A DNA stretch of 64,000 nt from Eubacteriales bacterium (GCA_045659405.1 JAZOWX010000065.1:9574-73573); one strand, 5' to 3'; positions 5,952 to 42,870 are shown, counted from the first letter of the stretch. Notes: a model not told the origin generated them from the sequence alone. Program-made: numbers and translations.

Positions 5952-6022
5952 TCAAGCCTCCGGCTTCATTGTGAACTTGCCGGGGAGAATGAAGCTTATA
6001 CTTCAGGCTTCATTGTCGGGTA
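5952..6022 (-). repeat. Two ghost copies of the lysS 3' terminus
   Basis: Minus strand 6022..5996 reads TAC CCG ACA ATG AAG CCT GAA GTA TAA (YPTMKPEV*), followed by 22 nt of 3' UTR homology. Minus strand 5975..5952 reads TTC ACA ATG AAG CCG GAG GCT TGA (FTMKPEA*). The real lysS end is FPTMKPEV*. Confidence 0.9.
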
Positions 6023-6165
6023 GCAAGGCAAAAAGCTTCCTGTGGACGCTTTTTGGCGAAGCGAAACCGCCCATAGCAAGGAGCAAACAGAGCCGAGGCT
6101 TGCGTAGGAGAGAGTTTGCGACTATGCGAAGGTGGAGGGGATAAACTTGCTGGGGAAAATGAAGC

Positions 6166-7674
6166 TTATACTTCAGGCTTCATAGTCGGGAACAGAAGCA
6201 CGTCACGGATTGAAGCCGAATCTGTGAGGAGCATAACGAGTCTGTCAACACCGAAGCCGAGACCGCCTGTGGGGGGCATACCGTATTCGAGCGCTGTGAT
6301 GTAGTCGTAATCAACCTCGGCTGACGTGTTCGGGTCTTCGAGGCGCTTTTTAGCAACCTGATTTTCAAATCTCGCCTTCTGGTCGATGGGGTCGTTAAGC
6401 TCGGAGAATGCGTTTCCGAACTCGGTGCAGTTGATGAAATACTCGAATCTCTCTGTGAAGAGGGGATTCTCGGGCTTGCGCTTTGCAAGCGGGCTGTTTT
6501 CAACAGGGTAGTCGTAGATGAACGTGGGCTGTACGAGCTTGTCCTCAACGAAAGCGTCAAACAGCTCGACAAGAACAGTACCGCGTGTTGCATCAGCGGG
6601 AACTTCAACGTGGTGAAGCTTTGCAGCCGCTCTTGCATCCTCGTCGGATGCCCAGTCGTTGTAGTCGATTCCCGAATATTTCTTAACAGCCTCAACCATA
6701 GTAAGGCGCTCCCACTTGCCAAGGTCGATTTCAGTACCCTGGTAGGTGATTTTTGTGCCGCCGCAAACCTCGTTTGCAAGCTTCTTGTAAAGCTCCTCGA
6801 CAAGGTCCATCATTCCGTAGTAATCGGTGAATGCCTGATAAAGCTCAACCGAGGTGAACTCGGGGTTATGCTTTGTGTCCATACCCTCGTTTCTGAAAAT
6901 TCTGCCGACCTCGTATACCTTGTTCATACCGCCTACAATAAGGCGCTTGAGGTAAAGCTCGGTCTCGATACGAAGGTACATATCAATGTCAAGTGTGTTG
7001 TGATGAGTTACAAAAGGACGAGCCGATGCTCCGATTTCAAGGGGGAGAAGTATCGGTGTATCAACCTCAAGGAATCCCTTGCCGTCAAGATATTCACGGA
7101 TGCCCTTGAGTATCAGTGAACGCTTTACAAAGGTGTCCTTAACCTCGGGATTTACGATAAGGTCTACGTATCTTTGTCTGTATCTCTGTTCAAGATTTGT
7201 GAGTCCGTGAAACTTTTCAGGCAGCGGAAGCAAGGATTTTGCAAGCAAAACTATACTTTTTGCGTGTACGGAAACCTCGCCTGTCCTTGTTCTGAAGAGA
7301 ATACCCTCAACGCCGATGATGTCACCAACGTCCCATTTCTTGAAAGCGGCATAGTCCTCCTCGCCAACGTCATCACGTGCGACGTAAAGCTGAATCTTGC
7401 CGTCTGTGTCGAGCAGGTGAGCAAAGGAAGCCTTACCCATAATTCTGCGGCTTACCATTCTGCCCGCAACTCTTACGGTTATCTCCTCGCCCTCTGCGAG
7501 TGTCGCCTCACGGCTCTCAAATTCTTCAATAGCGCACTTTGCGGTATGCGTAGCATCGTACTTTGTTATCTCAAAGGGATTCTTGCCCGCATCTGTAAGT
7601 GCCGCAAGCTTCTCACGTCTTATCTGAAGCTCGCTTGTGGAATTGTATTCGTTAACGTTCTTATTTTCTGCCAT
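6166..7674 (-). CDS. lysS: Lysine--tRNA ligase (class II)
   Basis: 502-aa ORF with an OB-fold N-terminal region and class II core motifs (FRNEG, GMPPTGGLGFGVDRLVMLL). Confidence 0.97.
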   Translation of the reverse strand: MAENKNVNEYNSTSELQIRREKLAALTDAGKNPFEITKYDATHTAKCAIEEFESREATLAEGEEITVRVAGRMVSRRIMGKASFAHLLDTDGKIQLYVARDDVGEEDYAAFKKWDVGDIIGVEGILFRTRTGEVSVHAKSIVLLAKSLLPLPEKFHGLTNLEQRYRQRYVDLIVNPEVKDTFVKRSLILKGIREYLDGKGFLEVDTPILLPLEIGASARPFVTHHNTLDIDMYLRIETELYLKRLIVGGMNKVYEVGRIFRNEGMDTKHNPEFTSVELYQAFTDYYGMMDLVEELYKKLANEVCGGTKITYQGTEIDLGKWERLTMVEAVKKYSGIDYNDWASDEDARAAAKLHHVEVPADATRGTVLVELFDAFVEDKLVQPTFIYDYPVENSPLAKRKPENPLFTERFEYFINCTEFGNAFSELNDPIDQKARFENQVAKKRLEDPNTSAEVDYDYITALEYGMPPTGGLGFGVDRLVMLLTDSASIRDVLLFPTMKPEV

Positions 7675-7699
7675 AGAAAGTATCCGCCTCTCTTTATAG

Positions 7700-8182
7700 T
7701 CAAGCCTCTTTTGCTCTTGAAACGCTCTTTATGATGAGATGCTGCTCTCTGACACCCGAAACGACAACCTCGTCGCCTGCCGATGCACCGAGAAGAGCAA
7801 GTCCTATCGGGGAAGAATCCGAGATTTTTCCGTTCAAGGGGTCTGTCTCATAAGAGCCAACTATGTGATATACAAAATCCTTGTTTCTTTCAACGTTGTG
7901 AAGCTCAACGATAGAGCCAACGCTGATTTTGCTCTCGTCTATCTGCGACTCGTCAATGACCTTCGCATTTGCTATCATCTCACGAAGCTCGTCAATTCTT
8001 GCGTGGATTTTTCCCTGCTCCTGTTTAGCCTCGTCGTATTCGCTGTTTTCCGAAAGGTCACCGAATGCGCGCGCTGTGGAAATATCCTTCTTGTTTTCTT
8101 CTACCTTGACGTTTACAAGATAGTCAAGCTCGTCCTGAAGCGCCTTAAATCCGGCGGGGGTATATGTCTTTGATTCCGACAT
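7700..8182 (-). CDS. greA: Transcription elongation factor GreA
   Basis: 160-aa ORF. N-terminal coiled-coil with DLSENSEYDEAK, plus a GreA C-terminal domain. Confidence 0.95.
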   Translation of the reverse strand: MSESKTYTPAGFKALQDELDYLVNVKVEENKKDISTARAFGDLSENSEYDEAKQEQGKIHARIDELREMIANAKVIDESQIDESKISVGSIVELHNVERNKDFVYHIVGSYETDPLNGKISDSSPIGLALLGASAGDEVVVSGVREQHLIIKSVSRAKEA

Positions 8183-8258
8183 TTTTTGTTCTCCTCAACA
8201 GTTTATATATTTTTATTAAAATCAAATTTTATCAACAAAATGTGAATATATGTTTGCA

Positions 8259-9587
8259 TTAATTGGATATTTTTGCTAAAAGTTCGATTATAGCTGTGGC
8301 GAGCTGGCGGTCTGTACCGTCCGTGTTTTCTACAACGGTATCGGGTGTTATGCCCTCGCCGTGATAGTTCTCGCCAAGCGGTGTATAGTAGTAGGCAATA
8401 GTCATTGTAACAGAAGAGCCGTCGGTAAAGCCGAAGGTGGTCTGCATTATACCCTTGCCGTAGGTTACAGTACCGACAATGCACTCGTCAAGCAGTCCCA
8501 TCTGTCCGTAATCCCTGATTGCGGAGGTGAAAAGCTCTGCGGCGGATGCCGAGTACTGATTGCATAAAACAACGCAGGGCATACCGAGCGAATCGGGATT
8601 TTTCGTCTTTTCGAAAAAGGACATTCCTGCGTAGCTATATGACGTGATAGTCACGTTTTCGGGTACGAGATAGTCTATCATAGAGAGCGCTGCGTGAAGA
8701 TATCCGCCGCCGTTTGAGCGAAGGTCGAATATAACACCGACAGCACCGTTATCCTTTATGAAATCAAGCGCATCGCCAAACTGCAGGGCGGTGTTGTTTT
8801 TGAAAGAGGTTATCTGAATGTAACCTATATTGTCCTCAAGCATCTCGTAATATACGGTTTGCTCGGTAATCTTTGCTCTTGTTGCGATAAGGGTAAGCTC
8901 ATCCTCGCCTCTTTTGACGGTAACGCTTACCTGTGTGCCCTCGACACCCTTTATGGCGTTTGCCGTGCCGTCAAAGCCCAGCTCCTCTATCGACTTGCCG
9001 TCAACTCCGATTATATAGTCACCCGGTAAAAATCCTGCCGACTCGGCGGGCGAATCCTTCATTACCGAGGTTATAAGCATTGTTCCGTTGGTATAGTTGT
9101 GCTCTATTGTGACACCGATTCCGCAGAATTCACCGCTCATACCCTGGTCATATTCTTCATACTCATCGGGTGTGCGGTAAAATGCATAGTCGTCACCGAT
9201 AGCCGCAACGTAAGAATCCACGATAGCCGTGGTCACGTCGGTCATATTGGTGATATCGAGCTTGTCGTAGCGGTTATCAAGAAAATCGTATGCGACGGTC
9301 AGCGCCAGCTCGTAGGTGGAGGGAAGCTCCTCAACGTAGTATTTCTGAAATTTATCCTCAACCAGTATGAGCTTTGCCGATGAGTAATAGGTGAAGCCCC
9401 AGCGGCTAAGATACTGTGAAACGTATTTGTAAGCAGCCTCACCCTCGGCACTCTCGATATTTGCGTAGAGCTGCTCCTTTGGGGGCATCGGTTCTTTCTC
9501 GGGTAAGTTTAAATTGCACGAAAACAGAGCTGTCGACAGAGAAAGAACAATCACACACAAAATTGCGGTAAAAAGCTTCTTTTTCAT
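8259..9587 (-). CDS. S41 family C-terminal processing peptidase (lipoprotein, PDZ domain)
   Basis: 442-aa ORF. Signal and lipobox LFSC; PDZ segment (SPAESAGFLPGDYIIGVDG); catalytic context NQYSASAAELF and TYGKG. Confidence 0.9.
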   Translation of the reverse strand: MKKKLFTAILCVIVLSLSTALFSCNLNLPEKEPMPPKEQLYANIESAEGEAAYKYVSQYLSRWGFTYYSSAKLILVEDKFQKYYVEELPSTYELALTVAYDFLDNRYDKLDITNMTDVTTAIVDSYVAAIGDDYAFYRTPDEYEEYDQGMSGEFCGIGVTIEHNYTNGTMLITSVMKDSPAESAGFLPGDYIIGVDGKSIEELGFDGTANAIKGVEGTQVSVTVKRGEDELTLIATRAKITEQTVYYEMLEDNIGYIQITSFKNNTALQFGDALDFIKDNGAVGVIFDLRSNGGGYLHAALSMIDYLVPENVTITSYSYAGMSFFEKTKNPDSLGMPCVVLCNQYSASAAELFTSAIRDYGQMGLLDECIVGTVTYGKGIMQTTFGFTDGSSVTMTIAYYYTPLGENYHGEGITPDTVVENTDGTDRQLATAIIELLAKISN

Positions 9588-9771
9588 TGCTTTAATCCTT
9601 ATTTAAATTATAAATCCTCGTTTTGTGCAGTACATTTTTTAAGCCGTGAAAGCATTTTCGGTAAAGAGCCAAAGCGCTTTGCTTTTTCAATCCCGAATAC
9701 TTCACGGCAAATAAATATATGCTTTTATTTTTATCAGAATGATAGAAAATTATCAGATAGCTCGTCTATAT

Positions 9772-10866
9772 TCAGAACTTTGTAGGCTTGCTGGTAAGAT
9801 ATTTCTTAACCATAAGCGCAACCTTGAAGGTAACTGCGTGCTCGAATTCACGAAGGTCAAGTCCTGTAAGCTTTCTTATCTTTTCAAGTCTGTATACAAG
9901 CGTGTTTCTGTGAACGAAGAGCTTTCTTGAGGTTTCCGAAACGTTAAGGTTGTTTTCGAAGAAGCTCTGCACGGTCATAAGCGTTTCCTTATCGAGCGAC
10001 TCAAGCGAGCCCTTGTTGAACACCTCGCCAAGGAATATTTCGCAAAGCGTCGTTGGGAGCTGATATATAAGTCTGCCGATACCGAGGTTCTCATAGGACA
10101 TAGTGGTGCGCTCAATATCGAACACCTTTCCTACCTCGAGCGCAATTCTCGATTCCTTGTAAGCCATAGCGAGATTCTTAAGGTTGTCGACTATCGAGGA
10201 TATACCGATAAGCACCTTTCTGCCGTGTTCCTTTTCGATGCTCTTGGCAAGCTCCTTTGCAAACTTTTCAGCCGTCTCTGTATCCGAGCCCTTTTCAAGC
10301 TCCTTTACAACAACGACGTCAAGCTCGCTTATGCTGATAACGTAATCCTTGTTTTTGTCGTTTATGTATTCCAGAACAATCTCGTAGGGAACACCGTCGC
10401 CCTCGCTCTGGAATTTTATGTTGTATACCACGCGGCTTTCATCATTGCTGAAATGAAGCTCATTGGATTTGACGTATATATCGCTCGGAAGAATGTTGTC
10501 AAGAATGATGTTCTTCACAAACGAGCATTTGTCATATTTTTCATCATAAAGAACCTTGATGTTTCCAAGCGAGACAGAAAGCATCTGCGCCATTCTGTCG
10601 GTTTCCTTATCAACACCCTCGACAAACACGATTGTGTCAAGCTTTTGCGTGCCGCTTATTACAAATCTGTAAGTAAAGCCCTCAAGCGTGAGAGATGAGG
10701 TGGAGGAGGCATAAAGAAGCTCCTCTCTGATTCGCTGTCTTGATTCACCTATTCTGCCAAGCTCGCTGCAGGCTACGATGATACCGTTTTCATCTATAAC
10801 GCCCACAGTGCGGCCTATAACGTCGCGCATCTGGTGTATTACTGTTTGAAACAACCTGTTTGACAT
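9772..10866 (-). CDS. PucR/CdaR family transcriptional regulator
   Basis: 364-aa ORF with the C-terminal PucR-type HTH ETSRKLFVHRNTLVYRLEKIRKLTGLD. Confidence 0.85.
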   Translation of the reverse strand: MSNRLFQTVIHQMRDVIGRTVGVIDENGIIVACSELGRIGESRQRIREELLYASSTSSLTLEGFTYRFVISGTQKLDTIVFVEGVDKETDRMAQMLSVSLGNIKVLYDEKYDKCSFVKNIILDNILPSDIYVKSNELHFSNDESRVVYNIKFQSEGDGVPYEIVLEYINDKNKDYVISISELDVVVVKELEKGSDTETAEKFAKELAKSIEKEHGRKVLIGISSIVDNLKNLAMAYKESRIALEVGKVFDIERTTMSYENLGIGRLIYQLPTTLCEIFLGEVFNKGSLESLDKETLMTVQSFFENNLNVSETSRKLFVHRNTLVYRLEKIRKLTGLDLREFEHAVTFKVALMVKKYLTSKPTKF

Positions 10867-10904
10867 AAAAGAAAAGTACTCCTGTGACTTTTATTAAAAG
10901 ATTG

Positions 10905-10943
10905 GAAAATCAAAAACCACGCAAAAACAAGAGCGTTTTGCGT
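10905..10943 (-). terminator. Intrinsic terminator after rsmE
   Basis: ACGCAAAA...TTTTGCGT stem followed by GGTTTTTGATTTT on the minus strand. Confidence 0.7.
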
Positions 10944-11126
10944 AGCTTTGTTAATACTGTACTACATTCTACACTAAATTTTGACGTTTTTCAATAGTTT
11001 TTTGAAAAAATATCGTTAAATACACAAATTTTTTACAAATTTTCTGTGAAATTTTGTTTAGCAAATACAAAACGTACAGTATCCGTGAAATTTATTGAAT
11101 TTTTGCTTTGGCTATGCCGAAATCAA

Positions 11127-11870
11127 TCAGTCAAGCTCGAAGTGATAGGAAAGAGCGGAGAGGATAAAGTCGGGCGCTGTTTCGCAGCGCAAAATGCGCT
11201 CGCCAAGGCTTATCGGTGTAGCACCCGCATTGATAAGCCGCTCTGCCTCGTCGGTTGTAAATCCGCCCTCGCAGCCTACGATTACCGATACTGTGCGAAT
11301 ATTTGCACCCGCCTCGCAAAGCACACGCTTGCAAGACATATCACGTGAAGCTCCCTCGTAACAGAACAGCGTCAGGTCATATCCGTCCAGCATTTTCGTA
11401 ACCTCGGAAAAGCTTACAGCACCGTGTATTTTCGGAATGCGTGAGCGTGAGCATTGCTTTGCCGCTTCCATTGCAATTCTCCCAAGCCTTGCCGTCGTCT
11501 TTTCAGCCTTGTCCGCCTTTGGGCGCTTTATGCATCTTGCGGATTCAAAGGGGATGACTTCGCAAACACCAAGCTCGGTTGCCTTTTGTATAATAAGCTC
11601 AAGCTTGTCGGATTTCGGGTAAGCCATAAAAAGCGTAATTCTTATCGGACTCTCGCCAAAGCCCTCACGGCTTTCCTCTATTTTTGCGAGGCACTCGTCG
11701 TCACGTATTCTCGTAAGCCTTGCGGTATACTGTGTACCCTCACCGTCACTGACGGTTATGGAATCTCCCTCTGCCATACGCAGGGAGCGTGCGATGTGAT
11801 GCGCATCATCTCCGAAAATACGCACCTCTTTGTCCCCGATTTCTTTGGCATCTACGAAAAAGTTTGGCAT
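11127..11870 (-). CDS. rsmE: 16S rRNA (uracil1498-N3)-methyltransferase
   Basis: 247-aa ORF with the RsmE N-terminal PUA-like segment (FFVD...HHIARSLRM..GD) and a SPOUT C-terminal domain. Sits next to prmA, as is usual. Confidence 0.9.
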   Translation of the reverse strand: MPNFFVDAKEIGDKEVRIFGDDAHHIARSLRMAEGDSITVSDGEGTQYTARLTRIRDDECLAKIEESREGFGESPIRITLFMAYPKSDKLELIIQKATELGVCEVIPFESARCIKRPKADKAEKTTARLGRIAMEAAKQCSRSRIPKIHGAVSFSEVTKMLDGYDLTLFCYEGASRDMSCKRVLCEAGANIRTVSVIVGCEGGFTTDEAERLINAGATPISLGERILRCETAPDFILSALSYHFELD

Positions 11871-11923
11871 AAAGTCCTCACCTCCGACCTGTTAATAAGC
11901 CTTTTTACAATTCGCTTCTGTTT

Positions 11924-13782: not shown

Positions 13783-13810
13783 ATCAGCGTTAAATCTTTA
13801 TATCCGATAT

Positions 13811-13839
13811 ATTGTATCACGGGCGGCTCGAATTGTCAA
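13811..13839 (-). promoter_or_regulatory. Sigma-A type promoter for the ribF-prmA-rsmE operon
   Basis: Minus strand TTGACA, 17 nt, TACAAT. Confidence 0.6.
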
Positions 13840-14021
13840 GGCGGGCATTGTCGGAATTGTCGGGGAATCACGGCTTGTACCGAGCTTTTTTGAAAAGTAT
13901 TTACGCAAGTGCGGATTTTTGTTTTCTCATTATATGATTTTAGTTAACAGTATCTTAATAAATATGAGGTATAATTTGGGTACGGATTATACATTTGCAA
14001 TTCCCAACGGAGGAAACCTGT

Positions 14022-21020: not shown

Positions 21021-21054
21021 TATGAGATGTTGCAAAAAGCAATATGAAATGACT

Positions 21055-21119
21055 CCTCATCCGTCAGCCTACGGCTGCCACCTTCCCCCACAGGGGAAGG
21101 CGAAGTGCGGTGGATGAGG
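21055..21119 (-). other. 65-nt nested-palindrome element directly after the pheT stop
   Basis: Outer 8-bp stem CCTCATCC/GGATGAGG encloses two hairpins: CAGCC-tac-GGCTG and CCTTCCCC-caca-GGGGAAGG. It ends 6 nt from the pheT stop codon. Confidence 0.7.
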
Positions 21120-21124
21120 TGTAA

Positions 21125-27514: not shown

Positions 27515-27573
27515 CTTTGCACCTCCCCTTTTTAAAATGTTGTAAGAAATTTACCGATGCGCAGAAGATTTTA

Positions 27574-27700
27574 TCTGCAAATCTCGGCAGTTGAAAATAT
27601 CGGTAGTTTGAAATATCGGTAGTTGAAAATCTCGGCAGTTAAAAATCTCGCTGTTGAAAATCTCGGTAATTGAGAATATCGGTAGTTGAAAATCTCGGCA
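27574..27700. repeat. Tandem array of eight 16-bp units (consensus GTTGAAAATMTCGGYA)
   Basis: Head-to-tail copies with no spacers; one unit is 15 bp. The array lies 60 nt upstream of the uvrC start and downstream of the HPr terminator. Confidence 0.9.
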
Positions 27701-27761
27701 GGGCCCTGTATACGGATAAAATTAAGGAGTCCGAAAGCCGGCCCGACGCTTTTGTGGTAAA

Positions 27762-31504: not shown

Positions 31505-31579
31505 GGCTCGTTGGTCAAGCGGTTAAGACACGGCCCTTTCACGGCTGTAACAGCGGTTCGATTCCGCTACGAGTCACCA
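31505..31579 (+). tRNA. tRNA-Glu (TTC)
   Basis: GGCTCGTTGGTCAAGCGGTTAAGACACGGCCCTTTCACGGCTGTAACAGCGGTTCGATTCCGCTACGAGTCACCA. Anticodon loop CTTTCAC; encoded CCA. Confidence 0.93.
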
Positions 31580-31663: not shown

Positions 31664-31983
31664 GCGGTTCGCATTTCCGCCGCAGCCGTGTCAAGCTCGC
31701 TTGTAAGCGGCAAGGCAGGAAATATTCATCTGTGATGAAATTCCGCTATAGCACCCGAATGGGTGCTTTTTTCATTTCGTGGTGACTCGTAGCAGGAATC
31801 TCCCCGAGCGACGAAGTCGTGGGCGGTATTGCCGCTCGCACCAAATCCTATAAGAGTGAAAAAGCCGTTACATAAACTTACAATTTCCCTTGCTCGCCGG
31901 GCAAGATACCGTCTGCGACGGTATGCGCCACATTGCTCCGCCGCTTTCGTGTCGAAAGCCTTGCAGGGCGGCAAATTCCGCTA
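31664..31983. repeat. Scattered ghost fragments of the tRNA-Glu 3' half
   Basis: 31664-31681 GCGGTTCGCATTTCCGCC resembles the T-arm. The exact 9-mer ATTCCGCTA (tRNA positions 31561-31569) recurs at 31740-31748 and 31975-31983. At 31780-31800 the minus strand reads GATTCCTGCTACGAGTCACCA, which is the tRNA-Glu 3' end with a one-nt insertion. Confidence 0.8.
31751..31772 (+). terminator. Intrinsic terminator-like hairpin
   Basis: GCACCC-gaat-GGGTGC followed by TTTTTT. Confidence 0.7.
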
Positions 31984-31999
31984 TAAAACCGAAGAATAG

Positions 32000-32248: not shown

Positions 32249-33060
32249 ATGTATTCAAAGCAGGATATATTAAAGCAATTGAGAAATATGAAAGCGCCGC
32301 AGGACAGCGTGGTTATGATGCATTCTGCGTTCCGCACGGTTGGCGGGTTTGAGGGGGGCGCTGAGGCTTTTCTTGACACGCTGATAGAGTATTTTACCGA
32401 AAAGGGCGGATTATTCTGTGTGCCTGCCCACACCGCAGGCAACTGGTTTTTCGGCAAGGAAATTCACTTGATATGCTTAGCTCGGAAACTGACCTCGGTA
32501 TTTTAGCAAAAATAGCTATTGAAAGAGCTGACGGCGTACGCTCGGAAAATCCTATGCTTTCTACCGTTGTGTTCGGTGACAGGGCGAAAGCCGAGGCATT
32601 CGTAAAGGATGACCAATTTATCAAGACACCGACAGCGCCGGAAAGCTGCTTTGGTAAGCTTTATCAGCAGAACGGATACGTGCTTTTGCTCGGAGTCGGT
32701 CAAGAAAAAAATACGTTTTTGCATAGTGTCGGTGAAATTCTGGAGCTTGATGACCGCATGTCGGACGAAAATGTGAAAGCCACTGTCAGACGCAAGTCAG
32801 GAGAAATTGTCGAGCGGGAGCTTCGCCTTTATCATTGTGAGAAAACGTTTGACGTTTCTTTGCGATTCCCAAAATATGAGGTAGCCTTCCGTTATCACGG
32901 TGGTATCACAGACGGCTTTATCGGAGATGCACCGATACAGCTTTGCAGCGCTGTGAAAATGACGGATACCGTCAAACTCATCTTCGAAAATTCGGACGGA
33001 CAGGACCCGTTAGGCTCGGAATTTCCTATTTCTCAAAAATGGTTTTGTAAAGGGAAGTGA
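32249..33060 (+). pseudogene. Aminoglycoside N3-acetyltransferase (AAC(3)/YokD-like) family gene, frameshifted
   Basis: Two overlapping ORFs (32249..32506 and 32473..33060) together cover the family. Adding one T to the T5 run at 32447-32451 joins them as ...VPAHTAGNWFFRQGNSLDMLSSETDLGILAKIA... Confidence 0.75.
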
Positions 33061-33092: not shown

Positions 33093-33516
33093 GTGGAGTT
33101 TGCTTTGCAAACACGCAGCTTAAAGCGTGAGTAGAGCCAAAAAAGCCGACTACAAAACGTTTTTCAATGCACAGCACAGAAGCGCTATGCTACCACAGGT
33201 ATTCGCCTATGGCGAAGATACCCACGCTCTGCGCCTGAAGAACAAGCTCTTCGAGCTTCGAGCGGGGTATGCGAACCGGGGTTTGCTATGCAAACACGCA
33301 GCTCAAAGCGTGAGTAGAGCCAAAAAAGCGTCACCCAATCGGGTGACTGTGCTACCACAGGTATTCGCCTATGGCGAAGATACCCACGCTCTGCGCCTGA
33401 AGAACAAGCTCTTCGAGCTTCGAGCGGGGTATGTGAACCGGGGTTTGCTTTGCAAACACGCAGCTCAAAGCGTGAGTAGAGCCAAAAAAGAGTCACCCAA
33501 TAGGGTGACGCCTTTT
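33093..33516 (-). repeat. 162-bp tandem repeat (about 2.6 copies) downstream of tRNA-Thr
   Basis: Units start at 33189 and 33351, with only a few mismatches seen by eye. Each unit has several hairpins (GTTTGC-aaa-GCAAAC, AAGCTC-gaa-GAGCTT, GGTATCTTCGCC-ata-GGCGAATACC). Each ends in the terminator hairpin GTCACCCAAT(C/A)GGGTGAC. Confidence 0.9.
33484..33516 (-). terminator. Intrinsic terminator after tRNA-Thr
   Basis: GTCACCC-tatt-GGGTGAC followed by TTTTTT on the minus strand. Confidence 0.85.
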
Positions 33517-33592
33517 TGGAGCTGCTAGCCAGATTTGAACTGGGGACCTCATCCTTACCAAGGATGTGCTCTACCAACTGAGCCATAGCAGC
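33517..33592 (-). tRNA. tRNA-Thr (GGT)
   Basis: Minus strand GCTGCTATGGCTCAGTTGGTAGAGCACATCCTTGGTAAGGATGAGGTCCCCAGTTCAAATCTGGCTAGCAGCTCCA. Anticodon loop TTGGTAA. There is one C-C mismatch at the base of the T-stem. CCA is encoded. Confidence 0.85.
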
Positions 33593-33620: not shown

Positions 33621-33649
33621 ATTATATCAAAAAAATATTTTTTTGTCAA
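33621..33649 (-). promoter_or_regulatory. Perfect-consensus sigma-A promoter of tRNA-Thr
   Basis: Minus strand TTGACA, 17 nt, TATAAT, about 28 nt upstream of the tRNA 5' end. Confidence 0.8.
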
Positions 33650-35480: not shown

Positions 35481-35509
35481 TTGAAAAAAATGCGGCAATA
35501 TGATACAAT
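35481..35509 (+). promoter_or_regulatory. Sigma-A type promoter of the 1401-aa gene
   Basis: TTGAAA, 17 nt, TACAAT. The RBS AAGGAG precedes the ATG at 35543. Confidence 0.6.
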
Positions 35510-35542
35510 AAATAAAAAGTATATTTTAAGGAGTCTTACTAT

Positions 35543-38500
35543 ATGAAAAGATTACACAAATTGCTTGTGATACTGCTTTCGCTTTCGATGCTGCTCGGTG
35601 TGATCGCCATTTCCGCTTTTGCGGCAGATGACACGGTTGCTAAAATCGGCGACGAAGAGTACACATCGCTTTCTGCGGCGGTTGCGGCGGCAAACGGCCA
35701 GACGGCTGTTGACGAAAACGGTGACCCCGAGGCGGTTACGATCACGCTCGTAAAGGACGTGACGCTCGGCGCATCAGAGGGGCTCACGCTTGAGCTTGAT
35801 AAGCTTGCACTCACGATTGACCTTAACGGAAAAACGCTTGACGTGTCGAACGTCGGTCCTATCAGAGATCCCGGAGCGACAAAGGACAGAGAGGTTAAGG
35901 CGGCTATATTCGCAAGGGGCGCAGGCTCTGTGCTTACCTTTAAAAACGGAACTGTTATAAACTTTGGCGATAAGAACGGTGTATTTGGCATAGAAAAGGA
36001 TAGAGATGCGTGTATTGTAATTGAGGGTGTTACCGTCAATGCAAAGGGCGGTATTTCAACGCCCATAGTTAACGCCAGAAACGGTAAGGTTACGGTTTCG
36101 GATTGCGAATTCGTATCCTACGGCTATAATGCTGCCGTTGTTCGTCAGGCAGGCAATGCAGAGATTATAATTGAGGATTCCGAGCTGCTTAATATAGACG
36201 GCACCGGAATGCAGTCGGCTGTAATCAAGACCGAGGGTACGGCTACCGCTGTGCTGTCCGACACGGTTGATGACAAGATTGTTGAAAGACCTCATATATA
36301 CGTAAAGAACACCGAGATGTTCGCTGCATCAAACGTAATTATCACACACCTGTCGGGTGAGGCGAGACCTGCGACCTGCATCAAGCCCATTCTTCTGTTT
36401 GAGGATTGCGATATCGAGCAGTGCAACAAGCTTTCCTATAACAACGATGAAACACTTCTTCTTCAAAGCAATAACTACGTTTTGAGAGGAAATAACGCTG
36501 TCGTTGAGTTTGACGGCTGTAACGTTGAATACGCAAGAGTTGCGATTGCTACAAGCGACGCACTTGAGGTGAAAATCGACAACTCCGTATTCTCTATGAC
36601 TCTGCTCGGACAGCAGTATTATATGAATGAAACCACCGATCTCAAGACAGAATGCGACTCCTATTTTGTTTCGGGTAAGGGTAAGGTTTCGGTAACCAAC
36701 ACGGCTATATATCTGCCCAAATTGGCAAACGGCAAATTCGTTCCCATTGCGGATAACGTGGCTCTCCAGTATGCCGATTCGCTTGACGTGCTTTCCAAGG
36801 ACGGCTTGAAGCTTGGCAAGGGCTGTGTTACTAACTCCACAGATGATTTCGGTGATCTTCGAATTCTTGCTATCGCATGCACCTGTTACCCGATTGCCGA
36901 GGGCAGCTACATAGATATTTTCGCTCCCGAAAAGGACGAATGGTCGGATAAATGGTATTCGGACAACAGCTACGAGGCAAAGCTCAACGGCAAGAAGTAT
37001 AAGACCTTTGCCGAGGCTTACGCTGATGCTAAGGACGGAGATAAGATCGAGCTTCTTTCCAATATTGCAGGAATGCAGTCGATAGAAAAAGAAATATCCG
37101 TAAGAAACTTCGTAGGATATGAATTCAAGCACACCTCGGCAACCTATAAATCGATAACCTCGCGCGGATTTATCGACTTTATCCCCGCAAAGGCATACGA
37201 GCTTATAAGCGTTAAGCTTGTAACAGACACGGGTACGGAGGAAATGCTTGTTGCGGCAGGCAACTATGCGGTATATAACGGCTCGCTTGCAGCCGGCTGG
37301 AGATTCAGCGATTACAGAATCATCAACTTCAAGGGCTGGGGCGAAACACCGGATAACGCAAACCTTGGCGCTGATCTTCCTTACATCGACGGTAGCGTAT
37401 CCTCGATAACGGTTTACGCTGTATTCGATGAGATTTACGACCTTGACGCAGACTATGCGGTAACAGAGCTTAACGGCGACTTTATAGCCTTTGGCGGCAG
37501 CTACGACGAGCTTGCGGAAACAAATAACGTGTTTATGTCCGGCAAATTCAACGGCGAGGGCGAAAAAGCACGTGACAAGGTAATCGTACTTCTTCGTGAT
37601 ATATACACAGACAAAACGATAAACACTAATATAAACGGTAATATTTACATTGACCTCAACGGTCACAAGATTGTTACTAAAAACAATTTCCTGTTCTCCT
37701 CGGATCTTTCAAACTTCATTTATCAGTATGACGGAGCGAAAGAGGATGGCAAGGTTCCGATCAGAAGATACAACAAGAACTTTACCGTATGGGAGCGTAA
37801 GGATGCAAATTCTCCCTGGGAGCAGGTTTCTAACACGCCCTTCTACGCTGTTAAGAGCGCCGACGACCCCCAGATGACAGAATATGCCATAGGTCTTGGT
37901 GACTTCGAGCTTGCCGCAGGCAGAAGCAATGGCGGTGTGACGACGAACTTCTATCTCTTCTCCTCGAGGCCCGGAGCTTCGGTAGATACCGGCTCAAGCC
38001 CCATGTTAAAAATCATCTCTCACATGAGAGTAAGAATGTACACCGAGGGTAAGGGTAAGGAGCTTATAAACTCTAACACCAATACGAACAAGGTTAATAT
38101 CGGTAACTCGAAGCTTTCTGCTGATATGGCGGCAAGGGTTGGCGATAATCAGATTACCTTCAACTGTAAGACTCTTGGCAATTACAACGAAATTTTCAAC
38201 CATGCAAACTATATTGACGATGCGATTATTATTGCAAGCGGCGCGGGCGGTGCAATAACCTGTTCTGACACTGTCGGTCTTAAGGGTACGATTTTCATTA
38301 CCAACAGTGTACTTATGAATACAACGGCGGGCGCTTGCCTCATTCAGCTCGATTCGCTTGCTGCACTCTATGTTGAGGGTACAACCTTCGTTGCAACTCC
38401 TAATGGAGCAACCTATCCCGAATTTATGGGCAAGCTTGCTTTCCACAGTGGTATGCCAGCATCGACCACAAAGAGAGAAATCACAGGCTGTAATTTCATA

Positions 38501-39748
38501 AACTGCAAGCCTACGGTTAAAACTCTGACAAACAACGGTACTACCGTTCTCGTTAAGGATATCGCATATAACGTAGCCGGCGGTGTAACAGTCAACACCG
38601 AGGGACTTGTTCTTGATGCATCCTACGTTGTAAACGAGGATGCCGTATGGAACATTCCTGTTACGGTAGGTGATGAGGTTTACTACCTTGCTTATAAGAC
38701 GCTTCACTCGTCCGCTACCCCCGAAACAGTTACGGTTACCTGGTGTGATGCTGATGGCAACACTATCGGGGAAGAGACTTACTTCCGTGGCGCAAAGGTT
38801 GTTTATAATGGCGCTTTGAGCAGCGGTGTTGTAGACGGCAAGCCTTACGTCAACCTTTCGAAGTTTGTTATCGAGGCTATCGGTGACGCTGACCTTGATA
38901 GCATTCAGGCAGACGCACAGGTTATGGTAAGCGAGGTTGTATACGGTATTGATGCAGAGGTTGAGGTTCGGCATAACGTTAATATCTCGAGCGAGCTTAC
39001 CGTTTCTATCTACGTTCCCGTGCTTTCCGAGATAACGAAGATTTCGCTTATGACACCCGACGGTGAAAACCTTATCAACCCCGAGAATACTGTAATTCTT
39101 GGTGATGGCGCTGAGTACTACGTTGTAACCTCTGTTGCTATAAGCCCCAATCAGATTCACAGAAATATCGTATATGCTATCACGGTTTCCGACGGTACGT
39201 ATACCGACGTTGTATACAAGAGCGTAAGCATTCTCGGATATGCAGAGAAGCTGCTCGCGGATAAGGAAGCCAAAGATTCGGTAAAGGCGCTTGTTTCTGC
39301 TATGCTCGTTTATGCAAACGAGTCCTACAAGTACTTTGACGGTGCGGAAAATGCTGACGTTGCAGCTCTTATCGGTGAATACGAGGTATCCGCTCCCACA
39401 GCAGAAACCGCAAAGGACGTTGCGGCTATATCCGAGTACGTTCTTTACGCAAGTCTTCAGCTTAACAGCAGAATTGCATTCGTGTTCGAGGTTGCAGACG
39501 GCGTTGAGGCGCTCACTATCAACGGTGTAGAATATGCGGCTGTTGACGGATTCGTTGTATACGATTGCGACGTAGCAGCTACAAACGACCTTATCTCGGT
39601 AGAGGTAGGCGGCGCTGTCGGTGCATACGACCTTGTAGCGTATATAGCTGCGGTTGCTCCTGTGGCAGATGAGCTTACTGCTTACGATCTCGCTTCGGCG
39701 CTTTACAGCTTTGCTGCAGCGGCTGATGCGTATCTTGCAGACAACTGA
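35543..39748 (+). CDS. Very large (1401 aa) secreted protein, probably beta-helix/adhesin-like
   Basis: Sec signal MKRLHKLLVILLSLSMLLGVIAISAFAADD. It has repeated A-x-I-G/NG-x-x-Y-x-T/S-(L/F)-x-x-A modules (VAKIGDEEYTSLSAAVAAANG; AKLNGKKYKTFAEAYADAKDGDKIELL). I see no LPXTG, SLH or dockerin. Confidence 0.8.
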   Translation: MKRLHKLLVILLSLSMLLGVIAISAFAADDTVAKIGDEEYTSLSAAVAAANGQTAVDENGDPEAVTITLVKDVTLGASEGLTLELDKLALTIDLNGKTLDVSNVGPIRDPGATKDREVKAAIFARGAGSVLTFKNGTVINFGDKNGVFGIEKDRDACIVIEGVTVNAKGGISTPIVNARNGKVTVSDCEFVSYGYNAAVVRQAGNAEIIIEDSELLNIDGTGMQSAVIKTEGTATAVLSDTVDDKIVERPHIYVKNTEMFAASNVIITHLSGEARPATCIKPILLFEDCDIEQCNKLSYNNDETLLLQSNNYVLRGNNAVVEFDGCNVEYARVAIATSDALEVKIDNSVFSMTLLGQQYYMNETTDLKTECDSYFVSGKGKVSVTNTAIYLPKLANGKFVPIADNVALQYADSLDVLSKDGLKLGKGCVTNSTDDFGDLRILAIACTCYPIAEGSYIDIFAPEKDEWSDKWYSDNSYEAKLNGKKYKTFAEAYADAKDGDKIELLSNIAGMQSIEKEISVRNFVGYEFKHTSATYKSITSRGFIDFIPAKAYELISVKLVTDTGTEEMLVAAGNYAVYNGSLAAGWRFSDYRIINFKGWGETPDNANLGADLPYIDGSVSSITVYAVFDEIYDLDADYAVTELNGDFIAFGGSYDELAETNNVFMSGKFNGEGEKARDKVIVLLRDIYTDKTINTNINGNIYIDLNGHKIVTKNNFLFSSDLSNFIYQYDGAKEDGKVPIRRYNKNFTVWERKDANSPWEQVSNTPFYAVKSADDPQMTEYAIGLGDFELAAGRSNGGVTTNFYLFSSRPGASVDTGSSPMLKIISHMRVRMYTEGKGKELINSNTNTNKVNIGNSKLSADMAARVGDNQITFNCKTLGNYNEIFNHANYIDDAIIIASGAGGAITCSDTVGLKGTIFITNSVLMNTTAGACLIQLDSLAALYVEGTTFVATPNGATYPEFMGKLAFHSGMPASTTKREITGCNFINCKPTVKTLTNNGTTVLVKDIAYNVAGGVTVNTEGLVLDASYVVNEDAVWNIPVTVGDEVYYLAYKTLHSSATPETVTVTWCDADGNTIGEETYFRGAKVVYNGALSSGVVDGKPYVNLSKFVIEAIGDADLDSIQADAQVMVSEVVYGIDAEVEVRHNVNISSELTVSIYVPVLSEITKISLMTPDGENLINPENTVILGDGAEYYVVTSVAISPNQIHRNIVYAITVSDGTYTDVVYKSVSILGYAEKLLADKEAKDSVKALVSAMLVYANESYKYFDGAENADVAALIGEYEVSAPTAETAKDVAAISEYVLYASLQLNSRIAFVFEVADGVEALTINGVEYAAVDGFVVYDCDVAATNDLISVEVGGAVGAYDLVAYIAAVAPVADELTAYDLASALYSFAAAADAYLADN

Positions 39749-39903
39749 TTAAACTAAAATACCATAACACCCAAAATCGGGCGTTACGGTAGAAAACGAT
39801 AATAAAAACCAAAAACAGGCTGTCTTGACTTTATGGTCAGGGCAGCCTGTGTACCTTTGTACCCCTCTCGCAGTATAGGGTAGCCCGTCTTCATAAAATA
39901 TAA

Positions 39904-39936
39904 AGCCCGATGGCAAATTGCCATCGGGCTGTTTTG
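39904..39936. terminator. Shared hairpin terminator between convergent genes
   Basis: AGCCCGATGGCA-aat-TGCCATCGGGCT followed by GTTTTGTT. Confidence 0.7.
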
Positions 39937-39982
39937 TTCAATCGGCCTTTAATAGCGGAACATACTCACTCCACCGCTTACC

Positions 39983-40057
39983 GTGGAGGAGTTCGGTTAG
40001 AAAACCTGCCTATTAAAGTGCGTTTCCGTTTTTATCGAAAAGCGGCAATGGTGCAAG
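39983..40057 (-). repeat. Ghost copy of the 3' end of the phosphoribosyltransferase gene (14 codons, stop, 30 nt of UTR)
   Basis: Minus strand 40057..40013 encodes LAPLPLFDKNGNAL*, identical to the real C-terminus (40169..40125). It differs at 7 nt in 6 codons, all synonymous. The adjacent 30-nt UTR differs at 1 nt. The two copies are 112 nt apart. Confidence 0.92.
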
Positions 40058-40124
40058 ATTCTCGGCTCCCTCTGCGAGGGGGCTCCGCAAAGCGGTGGAG
40101 GAGTTCGGTTAGAAAAGCTGCCTA

Positions 40125-40676
40125 TTAAAGTGCGTTTCCGTTTTTGTCAAAGAGCGGAAGCGGTGCGAGGTATGTTATATCCTTTCTTTCGATAGCATCG
40201 CCCTCGGCAAGGATAGCCATTTTGCCCACGATTTCGCCGCCTGCCTGCAAAACGAGGTTTTCAAGCGACAGGAGCGAACCGCCCGTGCTTATTACGTCGT
40301 CAACGATAAGCACACGCTTACCCTTGAGATATTCGGCATCGTCACCGTCTATGTAAAGAGTCTGTCCGTTTGTTGTGGTGATAGACTTTGTCTCGCATTT
40401 TACCACGTCTTTCATATAAAGCTTAACCGACTTGCGTGCAAGGACGTAGCGGTTTTTGCCCGAAATGCGGCACATAGCGTGAATCAGGGGAATACCCTTT
40501 GATTCTGCGGTTATCATAACGTCGTGCTCGGGTGCTATTTTGTAAAGCTCGGCTGCGCAGTGCTCGGTAAGCTCCACGTCTCCGAAAAGCACGAATGCTC
40601 CAATATAAAGCTCCTCGTTAATGGGGCAGAGCGGCAAATCACGCTCAAGGCCCTTGATGTTGATTTTATATACCAT
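40125..40676 (-). CDS. Purine (adenine/xanthine-type) phosphoribosyltransferase family protein
   Basis: 183-aa ORF with the PRPP-binding loop VLIVDDVISTGGS. Confidence 0.85.
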   Translation of the reverse strand: MVYKINIKGLERDLPLCPINEELYIGAFVLFGDVELTEHCAAELYKIAPEHDVMITAESKGIPLIHAMCRISGKNRYVLARKSVKLYMKDVVKCETKSITTTNGQTLYIDGDDAEYLKGKRVLIVDDVISTGGSLLSLENLVLQAGGEIVGKMAILAEGDAIERKDITYLAPLPLFDKNGNAL

Positions 40677-40811
40677 AAAAAAGCTCCTATCCGCCGTGGG
40701 TACGGCTTGTAGTTTTTTGTTCTTTAGAGTCGGGGAATTGCTCCTATTACAGTATATAATAATTCGGAAAATTTTTCAAGCGAATTTTTAAAATTTAGCG
40801 TTTTTAAAGAA

Positions 40812-41702
40812 TTATTCGAAGAAATCGTGTCCGCCGATTGAAAAAGCGTATTTTCTCGTATTGACAATCCAGAACGAGGTCGAGTACTTGGGCGCCATAA
40901 AGAATAAAATGTTCTCCGAAAGCCGTGTACCTTCAAGACAGATTTTAGCGGCAAGAGTCTCGGTGTAGCCTGGGGTGTTATAGATTGTTCCGTTTGCTAC
41001 GGGCGTAAACTGAACACCGTATTTGCGGTCAAAGATTACGCTGTAAATAGTGTTCGGGAAATCTCTTGACGCTACTCTGTTGAGTATGACGTTGCCGACG
41101 GCTATCTGCCCGATAAGCGACTCGCCGCGGCTCTCTGCGCTGATGATTCGCGCAAGCCACAGCACCTCGTCATCGCGGTAGAATTTTTCAGCCGGTAAAA
41201 GCGCTGAATATCTGCCGTAAACCCTTACCGAAGAAGTGCTGTTTGTAAAGCTTAAACCGCACGCTTTCACAAGCGTATCGAGCGGAGCATACATTCTTCC
41301 GTTTGAAAGAATGGTGACGGGTGATGTTGAAAACAGAGCACGTCCGTTTGCCCATACGACGTATGCGCCGTCTGTCGCTGTGAGCGTAAGGCCCTCTCCT
41401 GTGACGGTTATAGTGCGGCTTTTGCTGTTATATGTAACCTGTGCGTTTGTGATGACAGAATCGGAAAAAGCTCTTACGGGTACATATATCTGTGAGTTGA
41501 TTACAAGTGCTTGCTCTGAAAGCTTTGCCTCTCTAACGTAGATTTCAAGTGACATATAGCTGTGAAGATTTTTGTTTCCAATGCCAAATAGCCGCAGCTC
41601 ATTTTTGGTATAATTTGAGGCTGAAGCTCGTGTTGGAAGCATCAAAAAGATAAACGTGAATGCAAAAATCAAAGCAAAGCACCTCTTGAGTGCTTTTTTC
41701 AT
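40812..41702 (-). CDS. SleB-like cell wall hydrolase with an N-terminal copper-amine-oxidase-like (stalk) domain
   Basis: 296-aa ORF with a signal peptide. Hydrolase_2 signature LARIISAESRGESLIGQIAVGNVILNRV...FPNTIYSVIF. Confidence 0.85.
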   Translation of the reverse strand: MKKALKRCFALIFAFTFIFLMLPTRASASNYTKNELRLFGIGNKNLHSYMSLEIYVREAKLSEQALVINSQIYVPVRAFSDSVITNAQVTYNSKSRTITVTGEGLTLTATDGAYVVWANGRALFSTSPVTILSNGRMYAPLDTLVKACGLSFTNSTSSVRVYGRYSALLPAEKFYRDDEVLWLARIISAESRGESLIGQIAVGNVILNRVASRDFPNTIYSVIFDRKYGVQFTPVANGTIYNTPGYTETLAAKICLEGTRLSENILFFMAPKYSTSFWIVNTRKYAFSIGGHDFFE

Positions 41703-42013
41703 TAAGTCCTCCTTTCTATTTTTGCCATAACCGGCGGTGGAAGCAAAGGCGAAAATTCAATCTTCCGCCGCTCTGTGGCTATGTAAAGTGTAGCAAACAA
41801 AGGTGTTTTTTTCAATAGTGAGCCTATGGCAAAAATGTAATAAGATGGCAGAGGACACCGGCTCTCGTATTTCTTTACATTAATATATATAGGTGAGCTT
41901 TAAAGCCATATTTTACCTATTCCGTCTGCCTTCGAAAAAACACAAATTACGACTATTTATCCCGAATTTGGCAATACTAACTTTGACAGGAAAGTCAAAG
42001 GGGAGCAGATATT

Positions 42014-42802
42014 ATGCGATTAAACAAGGTTGAAATCTGCGGAGTTGATACGGCAAAGCTTAAGGCACTTAACGAGGACGAAAAACGAGAGCTTTTGTAC
42101 AGAGTAAAGAATGGCACGGATGCCGAAAGACGAGAGGCAAGAGATGCAATGATAATGGGGAATTTGCGTCTCGTTTTATCTGTAATAGGAAGATTTACCC
42201 CAAAGCGTGAGACGGTAGACGACCTTTTTCAGGTGGGGTGCATCGGACTTATGAAGGCGATAGATAATTTCAACCTTGAGCTTGACGTCAGGTTTTCAAC
42301 CTATGCTGTGCCGATGATTATCGGTGAGGTAAGACGGTATCAGCGTGATAACAATTCGGTAAGAGTGTCGCGCGGTATGCGTGATTTGGCATACAAGGCG
42401 CTGATGGTAAAAGAGGATATAATAAGCAAAGAGCAACGTGAGCCAACACTTGCCGAAATAGCAAAAAGGCTCGACGTGCCGCAGCGCTCTGTCGGTGAGG
42501 CTATGGAGGCAATAATCGAGCCGATTTCGATTTTTGATTCGGTTTTCGGTGACGGTGAGGATTCGGTTTACGTAATAGATAAGCTGAAGGATGATGGAGA
42601 GAGCGATGATATCTGGGTGGAAAATATCGCCCTCAAGGAGGCGCTGACGCATCTTAACGAGCGTGAGTGGTCGATAATTTACAAGCGCTTTTATAAGGGC
42701 AGAACGCAAATGGAAATAGCCGAGGAGGTCGGAATAAGCCAGGCGCAGGTGTCAAGGATTGAAAAGGGCGCAATCGAAAAAATGAGAAAGCTTATGGAGT
42801 GA
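42014..42802 (+). CDS. sigG: Sporulation sigma factor SigG
   Basis: 262-aa ORF. NKVEICGVDTAKL at the N-terminus, GNLRLVLSVIGRF, DDLFQVGCIGLMKAIDNF and FSTYAVPMIIGEVRRYQRDNNSVRVSR closely follow the SigG pattern. Confidence 0.9.
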   Translation: MRLNKVEICGVDTAKLKALNEDEKRELLYRVKNGTDAERREARDAMIMGNLRLVLSVIGRFTPKRETVDDLFQVGCIGLMKAIDNFNLELDVRFSTYAVPMIIGEVRRYQRDNNSVRVSRGMRDLAYKALMVKEDIISKEQREPTLAEIAKRLDVPQRSVGEAMEAIIEPISIFDSVFGDGEDSVYVIDKLKDDGESDDIWVENIALKEALTHLNEREWSIIYKRFYKGRTQMEIAEEVGISQAQVSRIEKGAIEKMRKLME

Positions 42803-42870
42803 ATTTAAAGCTTACAGAGAGAATTTAAGGCTTATAAAGTGAATTTAAAGCTTATAAAGTGAAAGCTTGG
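42781..42870 (+). repeat. 20-bp tandem stutter starting in the last codons of sigG
   Basis: The gene end aatgagaaagcttatggagt(ga) is followed by gaatttaaagcttacagaga, gaatttaaggcttataaagt, gaatttaaagcttataaagt and gaaagcttgg. Confidence 0.85.

Follow-up and report, generated by a model that had tools for sequence, protein, structure and literature searches.

Repeated gene 3' ends and a conserved ~120-nt non-coding module at lysS in a 64-kb Eubacteriales genome segment

The window analysed here (64,000 nt of Eubacteriales bacterium DNA, GCA_045659405.1, JAZOWX010000065.1:9574-73573, 47% G+C; positions count from its first letter) derives from an uncultured gut bacterium of Clostridia/Oscillospirales type and carries lysS, encoding lysyl-tRNA synthetase, and a phosphoribosyltransferase (PRT) gene, each followed by additional copies of its own 3' end, which we call ghosts. 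An original prediction, made from the sequence alone, had joined these two genes with sigG and a tRNA-Glu gene into one theme at four loci, whose neighbours are housekeeping genes (greA-lysS, pheST, trmD-rimM, sleB-like, PRT, sigG, prmA-rsmE). We find that the four loci are heterogeneous and not one phenomenon: lysS and PRT are compatible with a common theme, whereas sigG holds a tandem repeat and most of the tRNA-Glu fragments are not significant. On balance, we favour reading the lysS ghosts, and probably the PRT ghost, as direct repeats of the attL/attR type that arose from site-specific insertion at a gene 3' end. The lysS locus is arranged as follows, with sources in brackets.

6166..7674, minus strand: live lysS, ending ...FPTMKPEV-stop, with its stop codon at 6166-6168 (list of open reading frames, translation)
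6144..6190, minus strand: attL-like upstream repeat copy, comprising the last 7 lysS codons, the stop codon and 22 nt of 3' untranslated region (UTR) (repeat search, translation)
6021..6143, minus strand: miniature non-coding module, a 123-nt spacer (homologous inserts, model R1)
5974..6020, minus strand: ghost 1, the attR-like copy, PTMKPEV-stop with its stop codon and 22 nt of UTR (repeat search, translation)
5952..5973, minus strand: ghost 2, TMKPEA-stop (stop codon TGA), abutting the UTR of ghost 1 (translation)
5890..5928, minus strand: intrinsic-terminator-like hairpin beyond the ghosts (sequence reading, minimum-free-energy fold)

Both predicted lysS ghosts are thus present. The live copy at 6144-6190 and ghost 1 at 5974-6020 are 94% identical over 47 nt, and the 22-nt ghost 2 matches the live lysS tail at 15/21 positions. 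Ghost 2 is probably a tail displaced by an older event, the body of the insert having since been lost. For comparison, we collected 80 orthologous lysS loci (comparison loci are labelled L0xx); the closest LysS matches are in ruminant-gut metagenome-assembled genomes (MAGs) at no more than 88% identity. Exact-protein look-ups of LysS, PRT, SigG and GreA returned no identical protein on record, which ruled out a same-species comparison. A parallel to ghost 2 is found in L008, in which an abutting 15-nt ghost, identical to the live tail of the sister locus L006 (15/15), sits directly behind a live tail of foreign type (PET-stop). More generally, the PEV, PEA and PET tail variants of the ghosts match live lysS tails in other species. 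In five genomes the lysS ghost tails all encode TMKPEV-stop, with variation confined to third codon positions and the stop codon, and they were therefore under coding constraint until recently.

The original prediction regarded the spacers as stumps of elements that had been deleted down, which does not hold at lysS, as the spacer there is a conserved module of ~120 nt that also occurs beside tRNA genes. The order lysS stop, ~120-nt module and ghost TMKPEV-stop recurs in L007, L010, L011 and the metagenome contig L097, and the module junction at lysS is identical in the five genomes (these four and the window). Three parts of the module are conserved, i.e., a 5' end CC.CC.CCACCGTCGCATAGTCGC, a block CTCCTTGCTTTGGGCGGTTTCGCTKCGC, and an A5-stem-loop-T5 hairpin with the 3' end CTTGCTA; in the window these read CCCCTCCACCTTCGCATAGTCGC, then GGGCGGTTTCGCTTCGCC, then A5-hairpin-T5 and CTTGCTA. 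The left end can also be written CC.CC.CCACCGTCG and the right end GGGCGGTTTCGCTKCG-hairpin-CTTGCTA. No conserved reading frame was found in the module. In L011 it is present in two copies, a plain tandem duplication joined at CTATG/CTAGG microhomology.

Identity among the module copies of the carriers is 74-86%, compared with 46-55% at four-fold sites of the adjacent lysS, and carriers are dispersed over the LysS tree, so the module is not neutral debris. Sister loci with 94-95% identical LysS (L006, L008 and L079) are without the module. The alignment of orthologous loci that the original prediction suggested thus provided occupied and empty lysS sites among close relatives, L007 being occupied, L006 empty and L008 holding a ghost only, and L011 being occupied and L079 empty, as well as the kilobase-sized inserts described below; as the downstream context differs, the boundaries of these sites are not comparable base by base. 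A covariance model built for the lysS module (R1) was scanned against the window and 1.31 Mb of loci. It detected the module at lysS with 97 bits (E = 6e-21) as the sole copy in the window and, beyond known copies, found none new in the 1.31 Mb. The module family is therefore low-copy, its lysS member being a discrete miniature element present in few copies.

The junction itself is precise. The sequence CCN/ACNATGAARCC, with the junction at the slash, is found in the window, L007, L010, L011, L097, L025, L030 (twice) and L047, and the position of the junction at one and the same nucleotide in at least 8 independent loci indicates site specificity and not random illegitimate joints. In L025, L030 and L047, the ghost tails lie 1.0-3.0 kb past lysS, and the same core bounds islands of 1-2 kb (two in series in L030) with a GH5 cellulase, DUF6591 and unknown proteins as cargo. 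Arm-type repeats are present at both ends of the islands in L030 (TTATAAGAA, with a 10-nt period) and L047 (ACTACACCAA), which is the usual look of attL and attR. No integrase was found in the lysS-core islands of L025, L030 and L047. Likewise, the open reading frames in L005 and L016, which are repeat-rich after the lysS stop, are of housekeeping type, leucine-rich repeat (LRR) proteins or unannotated, with no integrase domain. Many MAG contigs stop shortly after lysS, which agrees with assemblies being broken there by large variable elements or by rRNA operons.

The 3' end of lysS is a documented target for ICEs (integrative and conjugative elements) with tyrosine integrases, which leave repeats of 13-17 bp (PMC4701971). 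The Faecalibacterium integrative and mobilizable element (IME) IME_Flo942_lysS_1 also targets lysS, and tandem elements and remnants, termed cis-mobilizable elements (CIMEs), have been described (PMC12084326). The statement in the original prediction that no described mechanism leaves such serial scars is therefore superseded, since both tandem accretion and decay to remnants or CIMEs are on record (PMC12084326; PMC4701971).

In addition to lysS, the module occupies other targets. A strict pattern for its right part retrieved six relevant metagenome contigs, including L097 with the module at lysS. In L091 and L096, the module is reversed beside tRNA-Cys and the insert is flanked by an 18-nt repeat consisting of the last 10 nt of tRNA-Cys and 8 nt downstream. 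The module adjoins a tRNA-Ser-like 3' fragment in L093 and a tRNA-like 3' fragment in L095. In L094 it abuts a convergent dut gene and provides its last codons: at 4385-4400, the reverse-complemented module end GGGTAGCAAGTAA forms the last three codons and stop of the dUTPase (…GGFGSTGSK-stop), so that the insert has rewritten the end of a gene met head-on. The module neighbours in L091 and L094, the two longer contigs examined, are housekeeping-type genes. Conservation as a unit across species, targets and orientations is not the pattern expected of independent deletions of large elements.

The second locus, PRT, has a single ghost, and here too the original prediction of one ghost with synonymous-only differences is borne out.

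40125..40676, minus strand: live PRT gene (PF00156; annotated adenine phosphoribosyltransferase), ending ...LAPLPLFDKNGNAL-stop, with its stop codon at 40125-40127
40095..40169, minus strand: upstream repeat copy, comprising the last 14 codons, the stop codon and 30 nt of UTR ending CTCCTCCAC (repeat search)
40058..40094, minus strand: 37-nt spacer, CGCTTTGCGGAGCCCCCTCGCAGAGGGAGCCGAGAAT, a GC-rich hairpin (sequence)
39983..40057, minus strand: PRT ghost (repeat search, comparison)

The copies at 40095-40169 and 39983-40057 are 89% identical over 75 nt, and the ghost encodes the identical 14 residues LAPLPLFDKNGNAL and a stop. A 51-nt stretch with a single difference (98% identity) gives way at a sharp boundary to 24 nt with 7 differences, a clustering with p = 0.001. 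All of the coding differences (7/7) are synonymous; the probability that 7 random changes keep the peptide is ~1e-5, and for decay of a dead copy it ranges from ~1e-5 to 2e-3 depending on the model. Judged from these sequence features, an identical core with a coding-constrained, diverged arm would fit an att-type junction of two long-separated alleles. Local duplication with gene conversion, or illegitimate allelic recombination, are possible sources of the PRT ghost as well. By eye, the PRT spacer and the preceding CTCCTCCAC resemble the end of a DUF559 cassette in L013 (discussed later), and model R1 does not detect the spacer. The block of the sleB-like and PRT genes (39748-42014) is inverted relative to L088, where a large protein, sleB, PRT and sigma are in this order all on one strand, and has the same orientation as in L084; one boundary of the inversion between the window and L088 coincides with the PRT ghost region.

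Taking the window together with related loci, we evaluated ~1,100 gene ends for tail recurrence. Nine tails recur at 18/21 positions or better within 400 nt, compared with 0 in reverse-complement and shuffled controls and 2 when the same test is applied to gene 5' ends, so 3'-end ghosts are real and non-random; a genome-wide scan of this kind was the check proposed in the original prediction. A peptide-level tail scan recovered the same ghost cases. Further ghost tails were noted in two unrelated Clostridia MAGs. In L059 (5900-6010, minus strand), the tail MTFIREAVED-stop of a gene of 261 aa, located just upstream of an atpE-like open reading frame, lies in a 54-nt tandem with synonymous differences only. 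In L067 (1700-1930), the tail GKLAAKL-stop of a gene of 255 aa is followed by the fragments EKLAA-stop and IKLAAML-stop.

In the mechanism that we propose, incoming DNA would recombine site-specifically into a short core within the last codons of the gene (at lysS, CCN/ACNATGAARCC). The insert would bring its own copy of the gene end, so that the gene stays intact, and the earlier gene end would be shifted downstream to become a ghost; successive insertions would stack ghosts serially. The current lysS insert would then be a 170-nt unit made up of the replacement tail, 22 nt and the ~120-nt module, and the junction of the excised circle would read ...CTTGCTA-CCCGACTATGAAGCC...-x-CCCCTCCACC. 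As no integrase was found anywhere, the recombinase is something that we infer, presumably a tyrosine-type integrase; the module would move as a unit, and the PRT ghost would share the origin of the lysS ghosts. Lacking a recombinase of its own, the module would need to be moved in trans, as a CIME is. Integrative elements that carry replacement 3' ends, one of the routes offered in the original prediction, are thus well supported at lysS by the junction used in many species, the serial ghosts in L030, the islands with arm-type repeats at both ends and the published target, and are compatible with PRT. A bolder claim, which we put forward only tentatively as a possible reading, is that the module represents a new family of miniature, wholly non-coding, site-specific integrative elements, the smallest of this type, which occupy the 3' ends of tRNA genes and of essential genes. 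Each copy would bear a mimic of the end of its own target and be retargeted when that mimic is swapped (lysS, tRNA-Cys, tRNA-Ser, dut), and either the host or a recombinase encoded at another place would mobilise it in trans.

A number of observations weigh against site-specific insertion. The original prediction had named tyrosine and serine recombinases as enzymes to look for, but none of the inserts, the surroundings of the ghosts and the window open reading frames scanned for recombinase domains yielded an integrase or other recombinase. Strict patterns or short BLAST queries, which could miss distant relatives, retrieved no full-length element with the module when applied to IMG/VR, JGI metagenomes, PLSDB plasmids and INPHARED phages, and the search for an autonomous partner (IMG/VR pattern scans, and BLAST against plasmids and phages) gave chance matches only. 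Nothing convincing in the way of arm-type repeats was seen inside the 120-nt module or the PRT spacer, and the excised circle, at ~170 bp, would be tiny by the standards of a lambda-type reaction. The identification of the ghost as the native tail is clear for L008 only: the margin between ghost and live tail is 1 nt in L007 and L010, live and ghost tie in L011, and in the window the live lysS tail is 1 nt closer to the sister than the ghost is. Moreover, on both sides the lysS repeat in the window takes in 22 nt of UTR that looks native, a feature not predicted by a fixed crossover point. Five lineages at 84-96% protein identity have neither the PRT ghost nor the same UTR, and with no examined relative carrying the ghost, its origin has to be judged from internal evidence. 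Finally, a single module family at all sites was rejected at the sequence level, with R1 not detecting the module at the PRT, pheT and tRNA sites.

Other explanations are taken here in descending order of probability. No foreign DNA would be required if the gene end had been duplicated locally, in tandem or segmentally, by slippage or unequal crossing-over, and decay had set in afterwards, with gene conversion between the two copies from time to time; for the ghosts as a whole we consider such duplication unlikely. It fits one of the four loci exactly, sigG, at which the following feature is found.

42787..42863, plus strand: 20-nt tandem repeat in 3.8 copies, its start lying within the final 16 nt of sigG (42014-42802) (Tandem Repeats Finder)

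The array is head-to-tail, with a period of 20 and 85% matches, and the amino acids of its units (KLME-stop, KLTER, RLIK-stop, KLIK-stop) change freely, with no synonymous bias. It is absent from the relatives L084 and L088. The repeated sigG 3' units of the original prediction are therefore real but belong to a plain tandem repeat, an ordinary minisatellite and not an insertion scar. The tandem module in L011, the 97% identical 162-nt unit at tRNA-Thr (discussed later) and the 54-nt tandem in L059 also agree with duplication, and gene conversion could account for the 51-nt identical core at PRT. However, the layouts at lysS and PRT are A-B-A' with a unique B and not A-B-A-B, the 7/7 synonymous differences of the PRT arm are unexpected of dead-copy decay, and the lysS spacer is a conserved module common to distant species and other targets.

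A rather improbable alternative is that the lysS module is a 3'-UTR element selected by the host, either a terminator or insulator or a small RNA, which has been inherited vertically from the ancestor of the clade and lost repeatedly via its flanking repeats, the ghost being retained as part of the element. Module conservation is well above neutral, and the A5-stem-loop-T5 hairpin is present in every module copy with some compensatory changes (90% of cells paired, vs 48-59% with partners slid). The fold from the window has a z-score of -3.6, and precise loss would be easy through direct repeats. Yet RNAalifold indicated almost no conserved structure outside the hairpin, and no known RNA family was found for the module: the only matches of the window in Rfam 15 are three tRNAs, and no match in 5850-6250 improves on E = 5. 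The ghost tails vary only at third positions and the stop codon, which is not how a sequence that is long dead or serves as a DNA site would vary; the module lies in the opposite orientation by tRNA-Cys and beside other targets; and the tree would require at least 6 independent losses.

We give little credence to patchy allelic replacement, the other route in the original prediction. Here, homology-facilitated illegitimate recombination, with one end homologous and the other joined just past the stop, would leave the allelic gene end of donor or recipient as the ghost. The ghosts are indeed allele-like (the synonymous-only differences at PRT and the PEV/PEA/PET variants), selection would retain only joints beyond the stop codon, and the 47-nt repeat in the window includes native-like UTR. 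At lysS, by contrast, the junction lies at the same nucleotide in the at least 8 independent loci, the conserved module and its tRNA-adjacent copies would be unexplained, and similarity among carriers is not raised over the final 300 nt of lysS. This lack of co-conversion speaks against allelic replacement there, makes the left junction sharp, and rules out spread of the module by homologous recombination with co-conversion.

An assembly artefact, in which a metagenome assembler collapsed strain variants in tandem, is hardly credible, given that the lysS architecture is found in five independent assemblies from different studies and that the copies are 85-94% identical, not exact, with unique sequence between them, even though PRT and sigG are without independent confirmation, L014 (10780-11027) has a likely artefact, an exact duplication of the last ~90 nt of a gene into the contig end, and L088 (~6560-6660) has an N-gap right after the sigma gene.

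Two further candidates were rejected. A diversity-generating retroelement was discarded as neighbouring open reading frames contain no reverse transcriptase domain and the PRT differences are C/T, G/A, T/G and T/C at synonymous sites, and an integron attC was rejected on its defining features.

The original prediction also noted a motif shared by three sites. The pattern GGTGGAKGRG, defined after the fact, occurs 4 times compared with 0.21 expected, and 3/4 of the occurrences are just downstream of minus-strand stop codons. At lysS (6126-6140), the motif is simply the reverse complement of the 5' end of the module. At PRT it spans the junction of repeat and spacer, and the pheT occurrence falls within a nested hairpin of 84 nt.

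21041..21124, minus strand: GC-rich nested hairpin directly after the pheT stop codon, with the third motif (sequence; pheT by Pfam)

This hairpin reads CCTCATCCACCGC...CCTTCCCC-TGT-GGGGGAAGG...GGATGAGG, and no pheT ghost is present. In L079 (5575-5680), a DUF4268 gene is followed by a similar element whose first 15 nt are the same and which contains a CTTCCCC/GGGGAAG hairpin. Together with the PRT spacer, the pheT hairpin also resembles the ends of the L013 DUF559 cassette, although the resemblance is short. L013 (3095-3790, 5760-6720) contains two DUF559 (Vsr-like endonuclease) genes, one of which has inverted ends of ~45 nt with CCTCCACC/GGTGGA motifs. This cassette interrupts the palindrome GCCTCCACCGGTGGAGGC in its middle, where CCGG may have been duplicated, and the surrounding sequence is a tandem array of dnaJ-tail ghosts (KKTSFFSKFKK-stop) to which dnaJ itself is not adjacent; in L075 (1680-1770), dnaJ is followed by one ghost of its tail. 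The L013 cassette may be a small mobile cassette borne by an endonuclease. No DUF559 gene is present in the window and a literature search on DUF559 mobility found nothing; as a driver in the window, the cassette is not established, and we treat it as a lead that points to small inserts of a second kind in these genomes.

The features at the remaining locus, tRNA-Glu, are as follows.

31505-31579, plus strand: tRNA-Glu gene
31780..31800, minus strand: inverted copy of the last 20 nt of tRNA-Glu (local alignment against shuffles)
31738-31750 and 31973-31985, plus strand: two copies of the 13-nt repeat AAATTCCGCTATA

Of the four tRNA-Glu fragments originally proposed, only the inverted one is supported (score 35 vs a shuffled-null maximum of 27); the three on the plus strand score 18-21, each within chance. 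The AAATTCCGCTATA repeat is real, each copy being followed by a terminator-like hairpin, and its copies are possibly decayed tRNA 3' ends. Directly downstream of tRNA-Thr (33517-33592), a 162-nt unit, not listed in the original prediction, occurs twice in tandem on the minus strand (33095-33508) at 97% identity, with a partial third unit of 51 nt. The hairpin that opens each unit, GTCACCCnATnGGGTGAC, is terminator-like and recalls the one behind tRNA-Glu; each unit ends in CTGTGGTAGCA, which has a weak likeness to the tRNA-Thr acceptor end CTGGCTAGCAGC. Possibly, mini-inserts have accumulated in tandem here at the end of a tRNA. Between the two tRNA genes, among the tRNA-end fragments, lies an N-terminally truncated aminoglycoside 3-N-acetyltransferase (AAC(3)) gene (32473-33060, plus strand, with 32249-32506, plus strand; PF02522 profile positions 73-229 of 232). 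It looks like a cargo remnant of a decayed integrated element, and the tRNA-Glu/tRNA-Thr interval as a whole looks like a decayed integration islet. Upstream of uvrC (27571-27717), a 16-nt tandem array of AAATCTCGGCAGTTGA (7.8 copies, 79% matches) looks like an iteron or binding-site array.

The last 16 kb of the window (48439-64000) are a prophage, with a helix-turn-helix regulator and many open reading frames without a Pfam match. The integrase and attachment sites of the prophage were not located within the window. Its annotated genes are listed below.

59691-61454: prophage portal gene
61451-62803: prophage large terminase
53186-55900: BspA-type LRR protein in the prophage region

Among known systems, tRNA 3'-fragment island borders have a counterpart in the tRNA-Glu/tRNA-Thr interval, with its tRNA-end fragments and truncated AAC(3) resistance gene, and in the module family at tRNA-Cys and tRNA-Ser ends with short repeats; the window differs in having only one significant tRNA-Glu fragment, which is inverted. 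Miniature inverted-repeat transposable elements (MITEs) and repetitive extragenic palindromic (REP)-type repeats are, like the module, small, non-coding, intergenic and located just downstream of genes, with conserved ends, a variable middle and a hairpin. However, the module comes with 10-47-nt copies of the target end and not with a short fixed duplication, and it has one copy in 64 kb and none additional in 1.3 Mb of related DNA. An identification as a MITE was therefore rejected, the module also having no terminal inverted repeats (its ends CC.CC.CCACCGTCG and CTTGCTACCC are not inverted repeats of each other). Should the module prove to be a mini-element mobilised in trans, integration systems would have non-coding parasites of ~120-170 bp, as transposons have MITEs, and foreign alleles would repeatedly overwrite the final codons of lysS and other housekeeping genes. 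If it is only a remnant, these are ordinary att scars at a known target. Ghost tails are in addition cheap markers of integration hot spots in MAGs, where large elements break assembly.

The closest likeness is to elements with tyrosine integrases (ICEs, IMEs, prophages and islands), in which direct repeats hold the gene 3' end and the element-borne end keeps the reading frame intact. At both lysS and PRT, the repeats flank an insert and the upstream copy completes an intact reading frame. ICESt3-type ICEs of Streptococcus and IME_Flo942_lysS_1 use the same target gene, lysS, with repeats of 13-17 bp in the published elements compared with a core of ~15 nt here. Serial (tandem) occupation is shared with the lysS locus, and arm-type repeats at both ends with the related islands in L030 and L047. 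Integrative elements differ in that they span kilobases, whereas the inserts here are 112-170 nt with no integrase or other gene between the repeats (the 123- and 37-nt inserts have no open reading frame), and the searches turned up nothing that ties them by sequence to a full-length element. CIMEs, i.e., att-flanked derivatives of ICEs or IMEs without recombination and transfer genes, share with the module att-like flanks, the lack of mobility genes, a site used by integrative elements and the ability to form tandem arrays. They are deletion derivatives of recognisable ICEs or IMEs, whereas the module, for which the pattern and BLAST searches retrieved no full-length relative, is only ~120 nt long and wholly non-coding. 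Overall, the insertion process and the lysS target are already known, the unusual part being a gene-less insert of ~120 nt that is conserved across species, targets and both orientations and that behaves like a miniature CIME dependent on a recombinase in trans.

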